A stretch of 10,202 nt of DNA from a virus. The stretch lies in UHGV virus genome UHGV-0155057. The stretch is one strand, 5' to 3'. The notes under the pieces were generated by a model that saw only the letters and a list, made by a program, of their open reading frames with translations, did not search any database and was not told the origin of the DNA. Of the stretch, positions 23-5,640 are shown piece after piece. The first letter of the stretch is position 1; the number at the start of each line of letters is the position of its first letter. A program made the translations under genes and the position numbers.

Positions 23-51
23 AAAGAGCGCCAACAAGGCGCTCTTTTTTT
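23..51. terminator. Bidirectional rho-independent terminator hairpin at the 3' end of the tailspike gene
   Basis: Inverted repeat 23-32 / 38-47 (aaagagcgcc ... ggcgctcttt), 10-bp stem with 5-nt loop aacaa, followed on the plus strand by a T-run through 51 and preceded by an A-run. Tailspike stop codon (complement of 50-52) abuts the stem. The U-tract is good on the plus strand and weaker on the minus strand. Confidence 0.5.
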
Positions 52-2032
52 AAAATCCAACGTTATCGTCCAATACAGCACCAGTGCCTGTAGAGTTAAC
101 TCCATCTGCAACGCTATTCCATCTTGTCCCGATAACCGTGTTATTCACACCTGCTTCACGCACTGCGGAACCTGAACCACCAGATGATGAAATAGTTGAA
201 TTTCTTAACTGAATACCTCTTGATTTTACGTCTATATAGATTCCGGCCTGAGATGTATTGGAGTAATCAAAGTTACTTATTGAGTTACCTGAAGCTATTA
301 CGGCAATACTGTTCTCAAATCTTAACCCCTCCATACGTGTATTTCTAATAACGTTATTCGACACAATACCAATAGTTAGACCAACAATAAGTATTCCTTG
401 CGTGTTATTAGATAAACCTCTTGTGCCTGCATTATCAACAATATTGTTTGAGATATTAAACCCGTTAAAATTATTTGTTACCTCGTCCCTGTATACGTAA
501 ATTCCAGCGATGGTAGAATCAGTTATCGTATTACCAGTTATGACAATATCTGTCATGTTTTGGCTTTCCCATTCTCCTGCGGCTCCATACACTCTTATTC
601 CGCGTTTGCAGTTTGTTATTGTATTTCCACTAACTACGTGTCCCTTGCAGTTTAGATCACCAAAAAAGATACCATCATCTCCGGATGAAAGTTTATTGTT
701 TTCGATGCGACTAAAGTCACATCTTTGGTTATCGATAGCGTTACCTAAGAATCCTTCTATCGTGTTTCCTGATGATGAGAAGTGTTTTTGGCTTTGGGCG
801 CTTACACCCTGATTATATGGATATCCTGGTTTACCTGATATATAACAATCTTTTACGCTGTTGTAGTATGCATAAGATTCGTTAAGTTCAGGATATGTAT
901 ATGGCTGTCTAAAAAAAACTCCCCAATTGCATGAACTAAAATAACAATCTTTTACAGTGCAACCTGAAACCCCGTCAAATATTATAGTTGTTCTGTCGTA
1001 ATCTATTCCATCATTTCCACAGTTATTGGCGAAACATTTTTCAATTGTTACTCGAACACAGAAAAGATTATTATCATAGTCTCCAGATACTCCTACAAAT
1101 GGTTTTTTAAGGTCAGTCGCTCTGCATTTGTAGATGTGTATATCAGAAAGACCAGCGTTGACAATTACCCCTCTGCTTGTTAATCCATTGGAACCATCGA
1201 AAATAATGTTTTCTATTGCCGAATTACTACCTGTAAATCTCAGCATAACGGCATTGCTTGCTTTCGACTCAGTTATTGTTGCATTTTTAAATGTTTTACC
1301 ATGCTGAATTTGTATACCATTACCTGATACAAGGTATGTGTTTGCAACACCATCAATATTGCTTGATGAAGCAATTGCATTATTAACAGCTTCCGTGTCA
1401 TCAGTAATACCGTCTCCATAAGCTCCAAACATCAATGGGTTTACTACATCAGCATTAATGCGTAACCAAGCCGAGCCACCAACAGTTTTAACTATAGTCC
1501 CGTTGTTATCAGAGTAAGATTCACCATGTAAAACAGCGCGAAATCTACCACCACCAATCCCTGTTCCATCTGTGTGTTGCTTAAGAGTTATTATTTGGCC
1601 ATCAACCGTTGGCTCTATTGTTCGTAATGTGACAATGTCTGGACATACTCCTATATATTTTTGCCCATCAAAAGAAGAGAGTCTCTGCTCAAGCTGATCC
1701 GGGTCATACTTCAGCACATTAGGAAAATAGAACTGCTGCGCACCGTACGCATCATAAACAGCCATAGAATGGCCTTGCACAGTTACGAATTTGGCAATCT
1801 GTCCGTTATATACAGGATAACCAGCAGTGTTAATGATGATTGGTTGCGATACAGGAACGTGAGAGCCGTCTTCGTTCTCCACATAAACCTGAATCTGGTT
1901 TTCAGGATTTACAGGGTCAGTGTCAATTTTACCGATATAAATTTTGCCATTGGCTACAGCTTTAAAAGAACGAGCCATAGTGAAGAGTTGAGAAGGCATG
2001 CTTACCACAACATTTGCGGTGATATCTGACAT
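50..2032 (-). CDS. Phage tailspike protein: P22 gp9-type N-terminal head-binding domain plus a divergent right-handed beta-helix receptor-binding/depolymerase domain (660 aa)
   Basis: The track ORF 50-2080 contains [70 protein letters not shown], which from memory closely matches the first ~110 residues of P22 tailspike ([13 protein letters not shown]...[25 protein letters not shown]...). I trimmed the start to the ATG at complement 2030-2032 ([10 protein letters not shown]), which has GGAG 8 nt upstream on the minus strand (tggagcaatgaaATG). The remainder is rich in N/G/S/T/I/V repeats typical of parallel beta-helix tailspikes. Confidence 0.85.
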
Positions 2033-2057
2033 TTCATTGCTCCAGACGAATGATATG

Positions 2058-2080
2058 ATGCAACCACGATGTGATTGCAT
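2058..2080. promoter_or_regulatory. Candidate operator: 23-bp imperfect palindrome in the divergent tailspike/mnt intergenic region
   Basis: ATGCAACCAC-GAT-GTGATTGCAT: the 10-nt arms match 9/10 as reverse complements, centred at 2069. It lies between the tailspike ATG (2032) and the mnt-like start (2154). In P22 the Mnt operator is a near-symmetric site overlapping a promoter in the equivalent region. No promoter hexamers could be assigned confidently. Confidence 0.35.
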
Positions 2081-2153
2081 ACCGAAATGGTACTATTGAG
2101 TATTTATCCAGTAGGTTACGATGCCATTCCACCCAACTGGTGAGGCATCAAGG

Positions 2154-2414
2154 ATGTACAGCAAATACGACGAGGCGCAGTTTCACTTGAGACTTCCGCA
2201 TGAACTCCACGCGAAAATTAAACAGCGTGCGAAGATGAATAACAGATCGCTGAACTCAGAGATAATTGCAGCGATTGAGGAATCATTGGATAAACAAAGC
2301 TCTGCATCAGTTTACATTGACGATGCAGAGCTTATGGCAGAACAACAATCTGATATGGTTAAGAAAATTGTCTTTGATACGCTCAAGGAGCTATATAAAA
2401 AAGACAGCAACTAA
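2154..2414 (+). CDS. mnt: Mnt-like ribbon-helix-helix (Arc/MetJ family) transcriptional repressor (86 aa)
   Basis: The translation MYSKYDEAQFHLRLPHELHAKIKQRAKMNNRSLNSEIIAAIEESLDK...DDAELMAEQQSDMVKKIVFDTLKELYKKDSN aligns by eye with P22 Mnt as I recall it (...RMPMEVREKLKFRAEANGRSMNSELLQIVQDALSK...NDAERLADEQSELVKKMVFDTLKDLYKKTT). Start chosen at ATG 2154 (GGTGAGG 8 nt upstream) rather than the track start at 2121, to match Mnt length. It is transcribed opposite to the late operon, as in P22. Confidence 0.75.
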   Translation: MYSKYDEAQFHLRLPHELHAKIKQRAKMNNRSLNSEIIAAIEESLDKQSSASVYIDDAELMAEQQSDMVKKIVFDTLKELYKKDSN

Positions 2415-2434: not shown

Positions 2435-2512
2435 ATGCAAAGAGATATGATGAATATTGCGTTCTACATATTTGGTTTTTGCACGTTCCTGGTGTTTGAA
2501 AAGCTATTCTGA
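2435..2512 (+). CDS. Possible 25-aa hydrophobic peptide (MQRDMMNIAFYIFGFCTFLVFEKLF) immediately downstream of mnt; speculative
   Basis: ATG at 2435 is preceded by CGGAGG (2425-2430, short 4-nt spacer), 21 nt after the mnt stop. The peptide has a strongly hydrophobic core resembling a single transmembrane segment. It sits where P22 carries sieA, and its 3' end overlaps the convergent gp16-like stop. No homology evidence. Confidence 0.25.
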   Translation: MQRDMMNIAFYIFGFCTFLVFEKLF

Positions 2513-4501
2513 CAACGCATCAGACTTAGCCCCCTGCGTCAGAGCGTTAATTGCCTTTTGTGCCTGCTGCATTGCTTTCTCAAAGGCTGTTGATCCGCGT
2601 GGGGTGTTTGCCATTCGGAGCATTGCATTTCTGAATGGTTCGCTCTCATAGGCGCGAGTAAGAAGTCCGTAGCTTACTGCTGCGCCAGTTGTCGCTGGGT
2701 TCATTGCCGTCCCATACCCAATAATGAACGGGATAGTTTGCTGCCCTGTAGGTGTTGTTACTGCCGCTTTTGCAGCCTGCTGCGTGGATTGCAGGTAGTT
2801 TTTTAATCCATTCAGATAAGCAGCGTCCTGCCCCTTAAATGTGATGCCAGTCTGGTTTTGCAGGATGTTAAGCTGCCGAAGGAACTGGTCAGGGGAACCA
2901 CCTGATTTCTCCATCGCCTTTCCAATGATGCCATTGCGCATTTGCGCCCTGCCAACACGACCAACTGAGTTATACAGAGTCTTAATTTCCGATTTGTTCT
3001 TGCTGAATAGCATGTTGTTGACAACTTCTGGCGTCAGATCGCCTTTCATGAGAACATTCTTCAGCCTGGTATTCTTGAGTTTCGCTGCTTCGTCAGCATA
3101 GACGGCATTGGCCTGCTGATATTTACGGAGAGTATCGTTGCCAAGATTCTGACCAATGGCACCATTGATATCGTCGGTCATTGCCTTGTAAACGCGCTGA
3201 ATGGCAGCATCGGAACGGTTTGGTAACACTGGTCGCTCACCCTTCACGTCCATTCTGAACTGGCTGCGCAGATCGCTTAATTGCTTCAAATCCAGATTTA
3301 CCGGACCATCAGGACCAGCATTGCGAACAAGCTCATCACGATAGGACTGAAGTTTTGAAATAGTCTCGTTATCAGCAACCTTACCAAGCTTCTGCAGGTT
3401 AGATATTTCTGTATCAATCTGCTGAATTGCTCTTGCAGGCTGAATGTTTATTCCCGCCATAGCATTCTGAACCTGCTCCAGTCGATTTCCTGCAGCGCGA
3501 CGAATTCCTGATGTTTTCGCTTTAAGGCTGTCAATAACAACCGCTGGATCATACTCACCGAATTTATCAGCAAATCTCTGAACCAACTGGCTTCTCGCTT
3601 CCTGTTGCGTTGCTCTCATTCCGCTTGTGCCAGCCAGGGGGATATTTTCTGCTGTCGTTTGCGCCATTTTTCCGACGCGGGAAGTAGGCTGTAACAGGTC
3701 GGTGGTGTGCAGAGGCACTCCTTCACGCTCTGCAAATCTGATAGCTTGCTGCGCTTCTGGTGCAATAGCACCACGAACGCCACGATAAGCAGCGCCTAAT
3801 CCACGTCCGGCAGCGTTAATAGCGCCGCCAGCCAGAACGCCAACGCCTAAATCGGTAGCGAGTGCTTCCGCATCATCTTTCGCACTATTTGCAGCAAGTG
3901 ACCCGACTGCGTTTTCAGCGAGAAGGCGAGTTGCACCCTGAGCGATTCTACCAGCGAGTGTTGGTGCCTGTGTTGCCGCTCTCTCAATGCCAGCAGGAGT
4001 GAGGTAAGGCAATGCCTCAGAAAATACCCTGCCCTCTGTAGTTTGTGGAGTCAGCGCGCCTTGCTGAAGGCCAAAGTCCTGCTCTAATCCCTGCGTTGTT
4101 ACTCGTGGCGCTGGGTGATATGTCCCATCGCCAATTCCGAGTTTACCGCCAGCCCAAGCCGCCGCGCTTGTTACAGCATCGGCAACTGATGCAGGTATGT
4201 TTGCCACGTTCACGCCAGCCTGCACCAGTCCGCGACCAGTCTCTTTTACTGCTTCACCAAGATCAGACATAAATCCACTTTGCTGTGGTTGTTGCTGTGC
4301 TACTGGTTGTTGTGTCTCCACTGGCTGCACAGATGGCAATGGATAGGCAGCATAGAAAGCTTGCTTAGCCTGCTCTGCATTTTCTCCGGCTTGCGGGGCA
4401 ACGACTTCATTGAAGTATTGCTCCTGAGCCTGCGCTTTTTGTTCTGGTGCTAACGCCTGATACTGTGGAGAGGCGATAACATCTTTCCATGCTTTAGCCA
4501 T
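2504..4501 (-). CDS. Phage ejection (DNA-transfer/injection) protein, P22 gp16-like by synteny (665 aa)
   Basis: Long minus-strand ORF with an Ala/Gly/Gln-rich composition typical of podovirus ejection proteins. It is the last late gene before the mnt/tailspike region, the position of gene 16 in P22. Its start overlaps the upstream stop as TAATG (complement of 4499-4503), indicating translational coupling. Confidence 0.65.
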   Translation of the reverse strand: MAKAWKDVIASPQYQALAPEQKAQAQEQYFNEVVAPQAGENAEQAKQAFYAAYPLPSVQPVETQQPVAQQQPQQSGFMSDLGEAVKETGRGLVQAGVNVANIPASVADAVTSAAAWAGGKLGIGDGTYHPAPRVTTQGLEQDFGLQQGALTPQTTEGRVFSEALPYLTPAGIERAATQAPTLAGRIAQGATRLLAENAVGSLAANSAKDDAEALATDLGVGVLAGGAINAAGRGLGAAYRGVRGAIAPEAQQAIRFAEREGVPLHTTDLLQPTSRVGKMAQTTAENIPLAGTSGMRATQQEARSQLVQRFADKFGEYDPAVVIDSLKAKTSGIRRAAGNRLEQVQNAMAGINIQPARAIQQIDTEISNLQKLGKVADNETISKLQSYRDELVRNAGPDGPVNLDLKQLSDLRSQFRMDVKGERPVLPNRSDAAIQRVYKAMTDDINGAIGQNLGNDTLRKYQQANAVYADEAAKLKNTRLKNVLMKGDLTPEVVNNMLFSKNKSEIKTLYNSVGRVGRAQMRNGIIGKAMEKSGGSPDQFLRQLNILQNQTGITFKGQDAAYLNGLKNYLQSTQQAAKAAVTTPTGQQTIPFIIGYGTAMNPATTGAAVSYGLLTRAYESEPFRNAMLRMANTPRGSTAFEKAMQQAQKAINALTQGAKSDALSE

Positions 4502-5616
4502 TAATCACCCCATAGTGAAGAAAAGTTACTGCTGGCTGCTGGCTGTGATACCTGTGCAGGTTGAGATTGCTGCCGCTGAGATTTACCAACATTAACGTTA
4601 TATTGTTGGTTGTAATTGTTGGTGTATTCCTGAATCTCACGAATCGACTGCTGCATAGCCTCCGGGCTTGAATAGTCAACCTGCGGCATCCCCTGAAAAT
4701 ACATCTTCGCTTCTGCAACGGTGTTAATACCACTGGCACCCATGTCCCTTGCTGCTGCCACCCCCTGATTCTGCATTCTTCCCTGAATACGTTGTGCTGA
4801 GTTATATAACTGGCGCTGCTCTTTTCCTGTTAATCGGCTGCGAACATCAGCACCAATTGCCGGGTTACCTGCACCGCCTGTCATTCCTGTCATGAAATCG
4901 AGAGCAGAAGCGTCTGCATTTGCGATCGCGTCGATATCCTTCTTCATGGCATAGTTTTGTGCTGATGCAGACGATGTTGCAGGCGCTGCGATTGAACTGG
5001 CAGGAACGCGAACCATATTCCCCTCGTTGTCGATGCCTTCGTAGAACGCATTAGCCCCAGCGCCGTGAAGTTTCCCGCCTACCGTTACAGTTCTGCCATC
5101 TGATAACTGAACTGTACGCTCATCATTACCAGCGGTTCCTCTTGTTGACGCTCTCTGCATTGCCAAATCCTGCCCGCGTCGCGCAGTAGAAGCAGATAAA
5201 TCCTGACCGCGCATCGTGATGTTCTGACCTCGTGCTGTTAGCGCCTCGCCAGCCTGATTGCTGCGGATTGTCTCTGCAAGTTTTCCGCGATCAATCTCAC
5301 GCCCAACGATTCTGTCTTGCGCCTGAAAATATTGTTCTGGACCAAGAGCAGCCATTCCAAGGTGATCAACAAACTCACCAAATCCTGAAGGATTCTGCTG
5401 ATACATCTGAGCAACGTTATTAGGGTCAACACCGACGCGAGTCAGTTCCTTGGCGTTGTTTTGCAGCCATGATTGCATTGCTTCTGGAGACGATGACGCA
5501 AGGCGTGCGCCAGCCGCTAAGGTGCCGATAGAATTACGCTGGTCTTCATCAATGAATCCCATGCCTTTACGAACGGATTCAATCTGGTCTGGATATTGAG
5601 TAGCCAACTGACGCAA
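4501..5616 (-). CDS. Phage ejection protein, P22 gp20-like, apparently 5'-truncated (likely gene remnant)
   Basis: The minus-strand frame is open only up to 5640 (in-frame stop at complement 5641-5643). The track start at 5616 is TTG and no ATG follows until codon 19. The longest possible product is about 379 aa against roughly 430-470 aa remembered for gp20 homologues. Its 3' end is coupled to the gp16-like start. Assignment is by synteny and composition only. Confidence 0.5.
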
Positions 5617-5640
5617 AGCACCGCGATGGCAAGGTGTGGG
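5604..5640. other. Putative deletion/recombination junction where a 5'-truncated late gene meets a 5'-truncated early-left gene head-to-head
   Basis: The plus-strand recombinase frame opens only at 5604 (in-frame TAG at 5601-5603) and the minus-strand gp20-like frame closes at 5640. Both genes lack their expected N-termini and the two open frames overlap within this 37 bp. Confidence 0.5.

Follow-up and report, generated by a model that had tools for sequence, protein, structure and literature searches.

The region at positions 2033-2512 of the stretch of DNA analysed here (UHGV virus genome UHGV-0155057, 10,202 nucleotides, referred to below as the window) is an 'ant moron' in minimal form, belonging to a P22-like (Lederbergvirus) prophage: mnt, the core of the control region and a small ORF of 25 aa are retained, and arc and ant are gone. 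It is fairly likely that this is an mnt-only ant moron in which Mnt acts at a predicted 17-bp dyad and a 23-bp palindrome in the spacer forms a hairpin on the tailspike side. Ant morons that retain mnt alone were described in 2008 for ST64T and ST104 (Villafane et al., PMC2629481), where they consist of mnt and a small gene of unassigned function between genes 16 and 9, and have also been described for phage L (bioRxiv 10.1101/2020.10.05.325894). Among P22-like ant morons this arrangement is common and has been recognised before; it is not the new, rewired immI circuit that the original prediction had proposed.

The gene order, consisting of tailspike (-), mnt (+), the small ORF (+) and gene 16 (-), matches that of P22, with mnt placed between the homologues of genes 16 and 9 and transcribed opposite to the late operon. 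The tailspike protein carries a Pfam Head_binding domain (E=2.5e-67) and a beta-helix domain. Because profile positions 1-113 of Head_binding cover residues 1-113 counted from position 2032, this start is real, and a longer ORF from 2080 was rejected, its start being merely an upstream in-frame ATG within the palindrome. Upstream of the start, CTGGAGCA is conserved across the tailspike leaders of P22-like phages. The tailspike and mnt are separated by exactly 121 bp (2033-2153), as had been predicted, and neither an arc nor an ant ORF occurs between the tailspike and gene 16 or anywhere else in the window. The ant moron is bounded on its other side by the end of the gene 16 homologue, and the interval from 2033 to 2503 contains nothing but mnt and the 25-aa ORF, which is the content of an mnt-only ant moron. 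The 25-aa ORF is probably co-transcribed with mnt, and in most related loci it is open and conserved and shows synonymous changes; it has no Pfam or PHROG match, and kinship to P22 orf59a was rejected. The window is a deleted, defective prophage remnant with a fusion of gene 20' to a Rad52-like gene', so that late transcription would not reach the tailspike in this genome. The features of the region are listed in Table 1.

Table 1. Features of the mnt-only ant moron and its borders (positions in the window)
Feature	Position	Strand	Details
Tailspike gene (P22 gene 9 homologue)	50..2032	-	start ATG 2032-2030, MSDITANV...
Candidate alternative promoter toward mnt	2026..2059	+	CTGACA-17-AATGAT (2026-2054), overlapping TGaTATGAT (2051-2059)
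Shine-Dalgarno GGAG of tailspike	2040..2043	-	7 nt before ATG; read from sequence
23-bp palindrome, probable stem-loop of late mRNA leader	2058..2080	-	AUGCAAUCA(C)-AUC-(G)UGGUUGCAU
Probable Mnt operator, 17-bp dyad	2078..2094	.	CATACCGA-A-ATGGTACT; 8+1+8, centre 2086; P22 Omnt orthologue
Pmnt homologue	2096..2122	+	TTGAGT (2096-2101), 15-bp spacer, TACGAT (2117-2122); alignment
P22 Pant vestige, degenerate	2101..2127	-	ATGGCA (2127-2122), 15 bp, TAAATA (2106-2101)
mnt homologue	2154-2414	+	86 aa, recognition strand AQFHLRLP
Small ORF, 25 aa, hydrophobic	2435..2512	+	MQRDMMNIAFYIFGFCTFLVFEKLF; GGAGG RBS 2426-2430
Gene 16 homologue (DNA transfer / ejection protein)	2504..4501	-	PHROG phrog_770, E=2.6e-238

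The mnt ORF is an Mnt-type phage repressor gene with both Mnt domains present. Homology searches, which confirmed its predicted membership of the Mnt/Arc family, detected an Arc-like ribbon-helix-helix domain (Pfam Arc PF03869, E=8.6e-15, residues 7-49) and a C-terminal Mnt tetramerisation coiled coil (Pfam Repressor_Mnt PF11423, E=4.8e-12, residues 57-82), and the solved Mnt structures 1MNT (E=5.5e-18, residues 6-79) and 1QEY (E=1.8e-7) match the 86-aa protein. The identity to P22 Mnt is 47.5%. An upstream ATG at 2121, giving the 97-aa form annotated in phage Sf101, was rejected as the start of mnt in favour of 2154; the extension is closed by stops or out of frame in SE1, L092 and L093, and PGAP annotates the 86-aa form. 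In RefSeq and PHROG the family, including P22 mnt itself, is labelled 'partition protein ATPase', which is wrong. Around 98% of the mnt copies (n=162) are intact. The overall pN/pS of mnt is 0.31, and in the ribbon-helix-helix domain it is approximately 0.10 (pS=0.0995, pN=0.0102, roughly 160 copies). This domain is thus under purifying selection and mnt is a retained orphan regulator, an option that the original prediction had offered as its alternative and that fits these counts.

Matches to the module were found in 464 of 5426 complete E. coli genomes, and it is approximately 97% nucleotide-identical in phages Sf101 (NC_027398) and IME10 (NC_019501). Both phages share with the window the palindrome, in the variant forms ATGCAACCATGATGTGATTGCAT (Sf101) and ATGCAATCATGATGTGATTGCAT (IME10), the 17-mer of the dyad, mnt and the tailspike head-binding domain. 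The 25-aa ORF is absent from Sf101, unlike the window. IME10 has no annotation for mnt, and in Sf101 the gene carries the wrong label 'partition protein ATPase'; neither the Sf101 paper nor the Kapi1 paper mentions mnt. The window is a deleted remnant, but Sf101 and IME10 are complete phage genome records, and so prophage decay alone does not account for the arrangement. In SE1, L and VSe13, mnt likewise faces the tailspike. Among approximately 125 loci, no Mnt or operator of the type with recognition strand QFHLR, as in the window, adjoins arc or ant, and on the left every examined QFHLR locus is bordered by the tailspike or an HNH insert. Apparent 'arc' matches at related loci proved to be the ribbon-helix-helix domain of Mnt, and the long intergenic classes (654, 728 and 660 bp), considered as sites of arc/ant, hold HNH homing-endonuclease genes instead.

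In P22, immI is ordered mnt - Omnt/Oarc/Pant/Pmnt - arc - ant - gene 9. The window resembles it in its two-domain Mnt, in the position of mnt between genes 16 and 9 and against the late operon, in a 17-bp dyad immediately preceding ATTGAG (-35), and in CTCAATAG beside the Pant -10 position. Unlike P22, the window is without arc, ant, sar and sieA, its Pant is decayed, Oarc has shrunk to a CAGTAG vestige, the spacer of Pmnt is 15 bp and the tailspike begins 45 bp from the dyad, so that the complete immI circuit, mnt-arc-ant with a divergent Pant under Mnt, is not present. The recognition strand is QFHLR in the window and HFNFR in P22, with GTACCAT-like and GGTCCAC half-sites, respectively. As in ST64T, ST104, L and SE1, mnt and one small gene lie between genes 16 and 9, and as in SE1-type morons mnt faces the tailspike over approximately 130 bp (135 bp in SE1), the putative dyad operator and the Pmnt homologue are kept and Pant is lost. 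SE1-type morons differ in Mnt specificity (QFNLR with the perfect palindrome AAGACCAC-G-GTGGTCTT), in their leader hairpin, which is of the P22 type (CCGUAGCC..), and in the accompanying small gene, which is orf59a-like or orf62.

Positions 2078-2153, which make up the right two-thirds of the spacer, are orthologous to the Omnt / Pmnt / Pant control region of P22; the P22 operator and promoter positions used here are those annotated in RefSeq. Proteins of the ribbon-helix-helix family recognise a dyad operator through a two-stranded antiparallel sheet. Arc and the window protein share the beta-strand motif x-Q-F-x-L-R-x-P (PQFNLRWP in Arc, AQFHLRLP in the window), but the central residue is His in the window protein and Asn in Arc, there is no Arc-type operator, and, unlike Arc, the window protein has the Mnt-type C-terminal coiled coil that would lead to a tetramer on one 17-bp site. 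MAFFT places the 17-mer in the same columns as P22 AGGTCCACCGTGGACCT and SE1 AAGACCACGGTGGTCTT, and an invariant ATTG follows it directly in all three. Nearly all examined loci encoding a QFHLR-type Mnt contain the 17-mer, across intergenic classes, and among them divergent QFHLR Mnt proteins have a copy that is the perfect palindrome GTACCAAAATGGTAC. Operator and recognition strand also co-vary, HFNFR occurring with AGGTCCAC, QFNLR with AAGACCAC and QFHLR with (A/C)(G/A)TACC(A/G)(A/T). In the window itself, the symmetry of the 17-mer is weak (4/8 half-site positions, TACC-N5-GGTA), and its left half reads TACA rather than TACC in 7/76 related loci. The 15-nt core pattern has one full match in the window and one in the whole Sf101 genome; further copies in both, as other Mnt targets, were limited to weaker matches at chance level. 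On this comparative evidence, the dyad at 2078-2094 is probably the Mnt operator.

The original prediction had placed the operator at the 23-bp palindrome, ATGCAACCAC-GAT-GTGATTGCAT. The palindrome is present, with 9/10 arm positions complementary, but as the Mnt operator it did not hold up, since it is missing at loci with an identical recognition strand. It is restricted to the 121-bp intergenic haplotype and insertion derivatives thereof, and outside this haplotype it was not found in IMG/VR; the one exception in context, L185, has an IS2 insertion alongside the palindrome. It is absent, with the QFHLR strand present, from the 135-bp class, phage VSe13, L092-L094, L220, L237 and others. The arms can be read as 9+5+9 or 10+3+10, and the CC cores lie 2 bp wider apart than in the P22 operator. 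Variation is found at 8/23 palindrome positions versus approximately 24% elsewhere, so conservation is no better than in the flanks, and the version with 10-bp arms, as in the window, is rare (2/75 loci). An operator is expected to occur wherever its cognate strand occurs and to have 8+1+8 geometry, and the palindrome shows neither. It is therefore probably not the Mnt operator, as far as sequence comparison can tell.

The palindrome is probably an RNA hairpin of the tailspike message. On the strand of the tailspike mRNA it forms a 9-10 bp stem with its 3' end (2058) 25 nt upstream of the ATG, and the predicted fold is -11.8 kcal/mol (z=-4.0) on the - strand and -7.9 kcal/mol (z=-2.7) on the + strand. 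Across 18 variants, standard pairs occupy 97.5% of pair cells on the - strand and the stem transitions are all G.U-compatible on that strand only, although these are closely related sequences representing approximately 4-8 events, in which each transition is 50% likely to be G.U-compatible on the - strand. Analogous hairpins are found at the same position in P22, SE1/L, N7, Sf6, L092, L094, L234, L238, L244 and L265, and the divergent leader L069 has no clear hairpin. Leader hairpins are defined here, informally, by a 3' end approximately 25-28 nt upstream of the gene 9 ATG and by wobble pairs valid on the mRNA-sense strand only, and the stem-loop of the window shows both properties. For the other leaders, the 6 pairs given by RNAalifold include one compensatory pair and the alternations GC:7/GU:6 and CG:8/UG:5. 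Fold energies computed over whole leader segments did not discriminate between sense and antisense (sense more stable in 14/23 types), and therefore the pair-level counts were relied on. A limited literature search found no earlier description of a P22-like tailspike leader hairpin. An intrinsic terminator was rejected, as no terminator-like site was found in 1900-2700 on either strand; no U-tract follows the palindrome on either strand. An Rfam scan of 1800-2700 returned only two chance-level matches (E=4 and E=4.9), below the gathering score.

In the explanation considered fairly likely, a Mnt tetramer would bind the single 17-bp dyad abutting the -35 of the Pmnt homologue, and not the 23-bp palindrome. 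With the antirepressor gone, the job remaining for Mnt would be the control of the prophage-expressed mnt-smORF unit (mnt with the 25-aa ORF), antisense to the late operon, and Mnt would also occlude any leftward initiation surviving at the Pant vestige. The palindrome would function on the tailspike side as a late-mRNA stem-loop, the local form of the P22-like leader hairpin, and may contribute to mRNA processing or stability where the moron has its downstream boundary.

That the palindrome is functionless, a chance or hitch-hiking feature of a recombinant junction between a tailspike-leader module and the mnt module, is unlikely. The statistical weight of the palindrome alone is modest, with 3 distinct palindromes of such quality in the window versus 2.4 expected in shuffles. 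All occurrences fall within a single haplotype block of 95-99% identity, the right arm contains the module junction with the 135-bp class (approximately 2075-2078), and positions in the palindrome vary at least as densely as those flanking it. However, only 122 of 5000 shuffles of the 121-bp spacer yielded such a palindrome (p ~0.024), and L090, with a Mnt 87% identical, keeps a palindrome through a two-sided change (ATTCAAT..ATTGAAT). Moreover, all 9 pairs are retained on the - strand in 74/75 loci, and the hairpins that P22, Sf6 and other leaders have at this position are non-homologous, with the GC/GU and CG/UG alternation and the compensatory pair speaking against a chance origin.

Another possibility, which is quite unlikely, assigns the palindrome to the mnt side. 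Relatives have a 17-bp Pmnt spacer (TTGTTG-17-TACGAT, TTGTGG-17-TATGAT, TTGTTG-17-TATCAT; P22 TTGAGA-17-TATCAT), and in the window a 2-bp deletion shortens it to 15 bp. We infer the activity of the Pmnt homologue from its sequence, and given this short spacer, mnt may be transcribed from elsewhere. The deletion would have crippled Pmnt, and a new upstream promoter would drive mnt. The palindrome would then lie at approximately +1 to +20 of the transcript, either stabilising its 5' end as a hairpin or serving as an additional Mnt site of low affinity, and would lead, together with the 17-mer (approximately +12 to +28), to negative autoregulation. The sole promoter-like call within 2000-2200 is CTGACA-17-AATGAT, a speculative candidate for this promoter, as is the overlapping TGaTATGAT; the motif GATATGAT is common to all three intergenic types with a 15-bp Pmnt spacer and absent from 17-bp-spacer types, and the left arm GCAACCAT, read by eye, matches 5/8 positions of the operator half-site AGTACCAT. 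The promoter match of 9/12 is, however, no better than chance density (0.5 sites expected per 200 bp), and since the three 15-bp-spacer types share ancestry, the correlation with GATATGAT is not independent. The per-pair counts also favour the - strand (97.5% paired versus approximately 86% on the + strand), and the + strand hairpin has a C.A mismatch in 57/75 loci.

It is similarly doubtful that the orphan Mnt is retained for a job other than antirepressor silencing, in either of two forms taken jointly. In the 121-bp haplotype, Mnt would negatively autoregulate the new upstream promoter transcribing through the 17-mer and would thereby set the level of the prophage-expressed 25-aa membrane peptide, whereas P22-style Mnt leaves or helps Pmnt from approximately -45. 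Alternatively, Mnt bound 45 bp from the tailspike start would act as a roadblock and, jointly with the leader hairpin, set how much late-operon read-through enters the tailspike gene.

Against a promoter reading into the tailspike, as originally predicted, stands a scan that called none on the - strand in the window, SE1 or L008 and that recovered both P22 promoters, Pant (11/12) and Pmnt (10/12), where they are annotated; the Pant vestige, which matches P22 TTGACA-17-TATATT by position and is followed by CTCAATAG as in P22, was not called. The earlier model, in which the palindrome is the operator and Mnt controls a spacer promoter into the tailspike with gene 9 replacing arc-ant, has P22-like geometry (37 bp from palindrome centre to tailspike ATG versus 28 bp from Omnt to arc ATG in P22), an inner CCAC..GTG resembling P22 CCAC-C-GTGG, linkage of the palindrome to this mnt in 76/76 cases (IMG/VR) and the precedent that some transcription reaches P22 gene 9 through the ant moron (PMC2629481), but is highly improbable given the loci with an identical recognition strand that lack the palindrome, its wider half-site spacing, arms no better conserved than their flanks and rare 10-bp-arm version, and the degenerate Pant-homologous hexamers.

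For the mnt-only ant moron with Mnt at the dyad and a hairpin on the tailspike side, the operator is to be sought at 2078-2094 and not at the palindrome, which alters which probes and reporters would inform. In either form of the reading in which the orphan Mnt is retained for another job, HFNFR, QFNLR and QFHLR, together with the operators that co-vary with them, would provide a naturally occurring set of specificity swaps for recognition by ribbon-helix-helix proteins. In the phage L study the question was already raised whether an mnt of this kind is a remnant or has acquired a new function (bioRxiv 10.1101/2020.10.05.325894), and purifying selection without an adjacent antirepressor gene in any locus sharpens this question on the role of the orphan Mnt. 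P22-like tailspike genes have a hairpin, conserved in structure but variable in sequence, approximately 25 nt upstream of the start codon, and this leader hairpin could bear on the dosage of the tailspike downstream of an antisense-transcribed moron.

The window is part of a P22-like (Lederbergvirus) prophage, in which an Mnt-like repressor gene had been predicted to face the tailspike gene. This prediction was borne out: the 86-aa ORF matches the Pfam families Arc (E=8.6e-15) and Repressor_Mnt (E=4.8e-12) and the solved structures 1MNT (Mnt N-terminal domain, E=5.5e-18) and 1QEY (Mnt tetramerisation domain, E=1.8e-7), and its product is 47.5% identical to P22 Mnt. The 121-bp distance to the tailspike gene and the palindrome in this spacer are also present in the sequence, and no arc or ant ORF is found between the tailspike gene and gene 16 or elsewhere in the window; the original observation is therefore correct. 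Taken alone, the palindrome carries modest statistical weight: three palindromes of this quality occur in the window against 2.4 expected, and the chance of one within the 121-bp spacer is p ~0.024.

Features of the mnt-tailspike region in the window, with corresponding operators and leader hairpins of relatives
Feature	Position	Strand	Sequence or evidence
Palindrome past tailspike stop	23-47		perfect 10-bp arms, AAAGAGCGCC-TTGTT-GGCGCTCTTT
Tailspike gene	50-2032	-	product begins MSDITANV; Pfam Head_binding profile matches residues 1-113 end to end
Promoter scan call	2026-2054	+	CTGACA-17-AATGAT
Overlapping motif	2051-2059		TGaTATGAT
Palindrome	2058-2080		ATGCAACCAC-GAT-GTGATTGCAT; sequence symmetry
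Candidate Mnt operator, 17-bp dyad	2078-2094		CATACCGA-A-ATGGTACT then ATTGAGT
P22 mnt operator			AGGTCCAC-C-GTGGACCT then ATTGAGA
SE1/L dyad			AAGACCAC-G-GTGGTCTT then ATTGTGG
Pmnt homologue	2096-2122		TTGAGT-15-TACGAT
Inverted repeat at mnt Shine-Dalgarno	2120-2149		GATGCC...GGCATC
mnt homologue, 86 aa	2154-2414	+	121 bp from tailspike; Pfam, structure and P22 Mnt matches
Inverted repeat in mnt	2297-2308 + 2322-2333		perfect 12-bp arms, AAGCTCTGCATC / GATGCAGAGCTT, 13 nt between
25-aa hydrophobic small ORF	2435-2512	+	MQRDMMNIAFYIFGFCTFLVFEKLF; 3' of mnt; GGAGG ribosome-binding site 2426-2430
Gene 16	2504-4501	-	PHROG DNA transfer protein
Leader hairpin of P22, N7, 135-bp class			CCGUAGC-CAU-GCUGCGG
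Leader hairpin of related locus L234			CCGCAGC-UCU-GCUGUGG
Leader hairpin of related locus L238			CCGCAGA-CCUGC-UCUGUGG
Leader hairpin of related locus L244			CCGCAAGG-..-CCUUGCGG
Leader hairpin of Sf6			CCGGACAGG-UUGCAU-CUUGUCCGG

The genes between gene 16 and the tailspike gene form the ant moron, which in P22 holds mnt, arc and ant. Ant morons retaining just mnt have already been described (Villafane et al. 2008, PMC2629481), and the window module is a new E. coli/Shigella-type member of this known class. Two sequenced phages, IME10 and Sf101, carry the module at ~97% identity; the mnt homologue is without annotation in the former and labelled 'partition protein ATPase' in the latter (NC_027398 gp14). 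This label, also given to PHROG phrog_795 and RefSeq NC_002371 (P22 mnt itself), is a propagated misannotation of the Mnt family. The module is matched in 464 of 5426 complete E. coli genomes, where PGAP names the gene adjoining the tailspike 'Arc family DNA-binding protein'. In the Salmonella phages SE1, L and VSe13, mnt likewise faces the tailspike gene, ~130 bp away, and neither arc nor ant intervenes. Of 90 related loci taken from IMG/VR and genomes, none has arc or ant; their mnt-tailspike spacer is 121 bp in 65 and 135 bp in 7, with a few singletons, and in the longer classes of 654, 728 and 660 bp the tailspike gene has an HNH homing-endonuclease gene inserted at ~codon 5. At least three different HNH genes occupy this position on the opposite strand (loci L010, L030 and L075; phage Kapi1, L101 1356-1856), every insertion has left beside the spacer a duplicate of the original tailspike start as a remnant (GTGATATCTGACAT), and the 5' end of the tailspike gene has the look of a hotspot for homing. 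In VSe13 (L003, 3295-3585), a 96-aa 'antirepressor protein' ORF between mnt and gene 16, on the late-operon strand, resembles a fragment from the C-terminus of Ant and may be left over from a once complete immI region.

The 23-bp palindrome had been proposed as a candidate Mnt operator, which comparison of the spacers argues against. Sequence common to the spacer classes is confined to the stretch from ~2075 (TTRCAT/ACC...) rightward up to the mnt ATG, and the palindrome is limited to the 121-bp haplotype; it is missing in the 135-bp class, VSe13 and the Citrobacter, Buttiauxella and Serratia relatives, all with the identical recognition strand ...DEAQFHLRL.... A 17-bp dyad directly 5' of an invariant ATTG is common to the 121-bp haplotype and all of these relatives and is favoured instead. 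In the MAFFT alignment, this dyad shares its columns with the annotated P22 mnt operator and the perfect palindrome of SE1/L, and the half-site varies with the recognition strand: HFNFR (P22) occurs with AGGTCCAC, QFNLR (SE1/L; the same motif in Arc) with AAGACCAC, and QFHLR with (A/C)(G/A)TACC(A/G)(A/T). The QFHLR pairing is also observed in a far more divergent protein lineage (MEELETQFHLRLP...), with the perfect operator GTACCAAAATGGTAC followed by TTGTTG-17-TATCAT. Because the dyad aligns with the P22 operator, tracks the recognition strand and is the sole full match in the window, as also in the whole Sf101 genome, the Mnt operator is probably located at 2078-2094. The symmetry of the window dyad is only 4/8, and TACA is present in its left half in 7 of 76 close relatives. 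Decay is seen at two loci: in L185 (~1204-1300), IS2 is inserted right after the palindrome, within the 17-mer, and in a Citrobacter locus (L094, 3001-3015) a stop at mnt codon 5 is accompanied by a degraded dyad (ATAGTAC).

Several observations suggest, though not strongly, that the palindrome is a tailspike-leader hairpin in its local form. The - strand, sense for late and tailspike mRNA, gives the fold AUGCAAUCA(C)-AUC-(G)UGGUUGCAU at -11.8 kcal/mol (z=-4.0), against -7.9 kcal/mol (z=-2.7) on the + strand. In the commonest allele, present at 57 of 75 loci, C2064 faces A2074; as DNA symmetry or in + strand RNA this is a mismatch, whereas - strand RNA has a U.G pair here. On the - strand only, G.U also results from the one-sided transitions 2072 T>C, 2073 G>A and 2077 G>A, the changes 2064 C>T or 2074 A>G bring back Watson-Crick pairs, and in locus L090 the stem is preserved by a two-sided change. 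Across 18 distinct, closely related variants, representing only ~4-8 independent informative events, standard pairs make up 97.5% of pair cells on the - strand and ~86% on the + strand, the latter calculated from the identical per-pair counts. A stem-loop of differing sequence is found at this place in other P22-like phages, its 3' end lying 25-28 nt upstream of the tailspike ATG. RNAalifold of 13 leaders returned 6 pairs (GC:7/GU:6, CG:8/UG:5, one compensatory pair), with wobble pairs valid in the mRNA sense only; the divergent leader L069 has no clear hairpin. The palindrome matches no Rfam family, and a terminator scan ruled it out as a terminator. Lying downstream of the antisense-transcribed moron, the leader hairpin may help to process the tailspike message or to stabilise its 5' end. 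A- and T-runs border the separate palindrome past the tailspike stop; this palindrome resembles an intrinsic terminator for both directions.

The promoter proposed to read into the tailspike gene was not recovered. The consensus scan, in which P22 Pant (TTGACA-17-TATATT) scores 11/12 and Pmnt (TTGAGA-17-TATCAT) 10/12, both at annotated coordinates, detected no - strand promoter-like site in the window or in the SE1 and L008 spacers. The Pant-homologous position in the window reads ATGGCA-15-TAAATA, then CTCAATAG as in P22, and is a decayed Pant vestige. Relatives keep the Pmnt homologue, with differing spacer sequences (TTGTTG-17-TACGAT, TTGTGG-17-TATGAT, TTGTTG-17-TATCAT). A 2-bp deletion (GGTTACGAT vs GGTTTTACGAT) reduces the homologue's spacer to 15 bp in the 121-bp haplotype and also shortens the overlapping Pant vestige; 17 bp is retained in all other Mnt lineages examined. 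The single scan call, just 5' of the palindrome, might be a replacement promoter for mnt, though one such match is about the chance expectation. The inverted repeat flanking the mnt Shine-Dalgarno overlaps the -10-like TACGAT with its left arm and is kept, with variable spacing, in SE1 and the Buttiauxella and Serratia relatives; it would occur in late (antisense) RNA or upstream-promoter transcripts, not in Pmnt-homologue RNA.

In the window, gene 20 (ejection protein) is 5'-truncated (Pfam Inj_translocase profile 83-217 aligns to residues 1-134) and adjoins a 5'-truncated Rad52/Erf-like recombinase gene, whereas the two genes lie roughly 25 kb apart in IME10; the junction at 5615/5616 (window 5600-5640) is a deletion joint. 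The element is without immC, replication, lysis and head genes, and the early-left operon makes up the remainder of the window, closing with a small C-terminal ORF that presumably matches TorI, the KplE1 excisionase. The nearest genome, E. coli PSJ-12, has a similarly but differently decayed element at the argW/intS (KplE1/CPS-53) site. The window copy thus belongs to a defective prophage without late promoter and antiterminator. Tailspike expression from it would depend on local initiation, and no evidence for such initiation toward the tailspike was found in the window copy.

Copies of mnt are intact in ~98% of 162 cases, and most alleles flagged as non-intact by script represent a variant with a longer C-terminus rather than a disruption. 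The pN/pS ratio is 0.31 overall, and the RHH domain has pS=0.0995 and pN=0.0102 (ratio ~0.10), indicating that the DNA-binding domain is maintained by selection, though no adjacent target gene is left. With arc and ant gone, this favours the alternative that mnt is retained as an orphan regulator. The rewired-circuit interpretation is supported in part: the Mnt family and the orphan alternative stand, whereas neither the operator assignment nor a tailspike-directed promoter is supported. The simplest remaining role of Mnt would be to control its own transcription unit, including the conserved 25-aa ORF; it may also occlude residual leftward initiation and could conceivably be a roadblock to reading through from the late operon into the tailspike gene. 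For P22, an influence of Mnt and Arc on read-through has been a matter of speculation (Villafane et al., PMC2629481). In most related loci the 25-aa ORF is open and conserved, and the changes it carries include synonymous ones; it is missing in Sf101, has no family match, is unrelated to P22 orf59a and may encode a prophage-expressed membrane peptide. The inverted repeat within mnt lies in the linker-coding region, with 10 bp retained in most E. coli alleles, and is absent in VSe13, SE1 and P22. The main interest of the locus lies in the probable relocation of the operator, the natural Mnt specificity series and the suggested conserved tailspike-leader hairpin.
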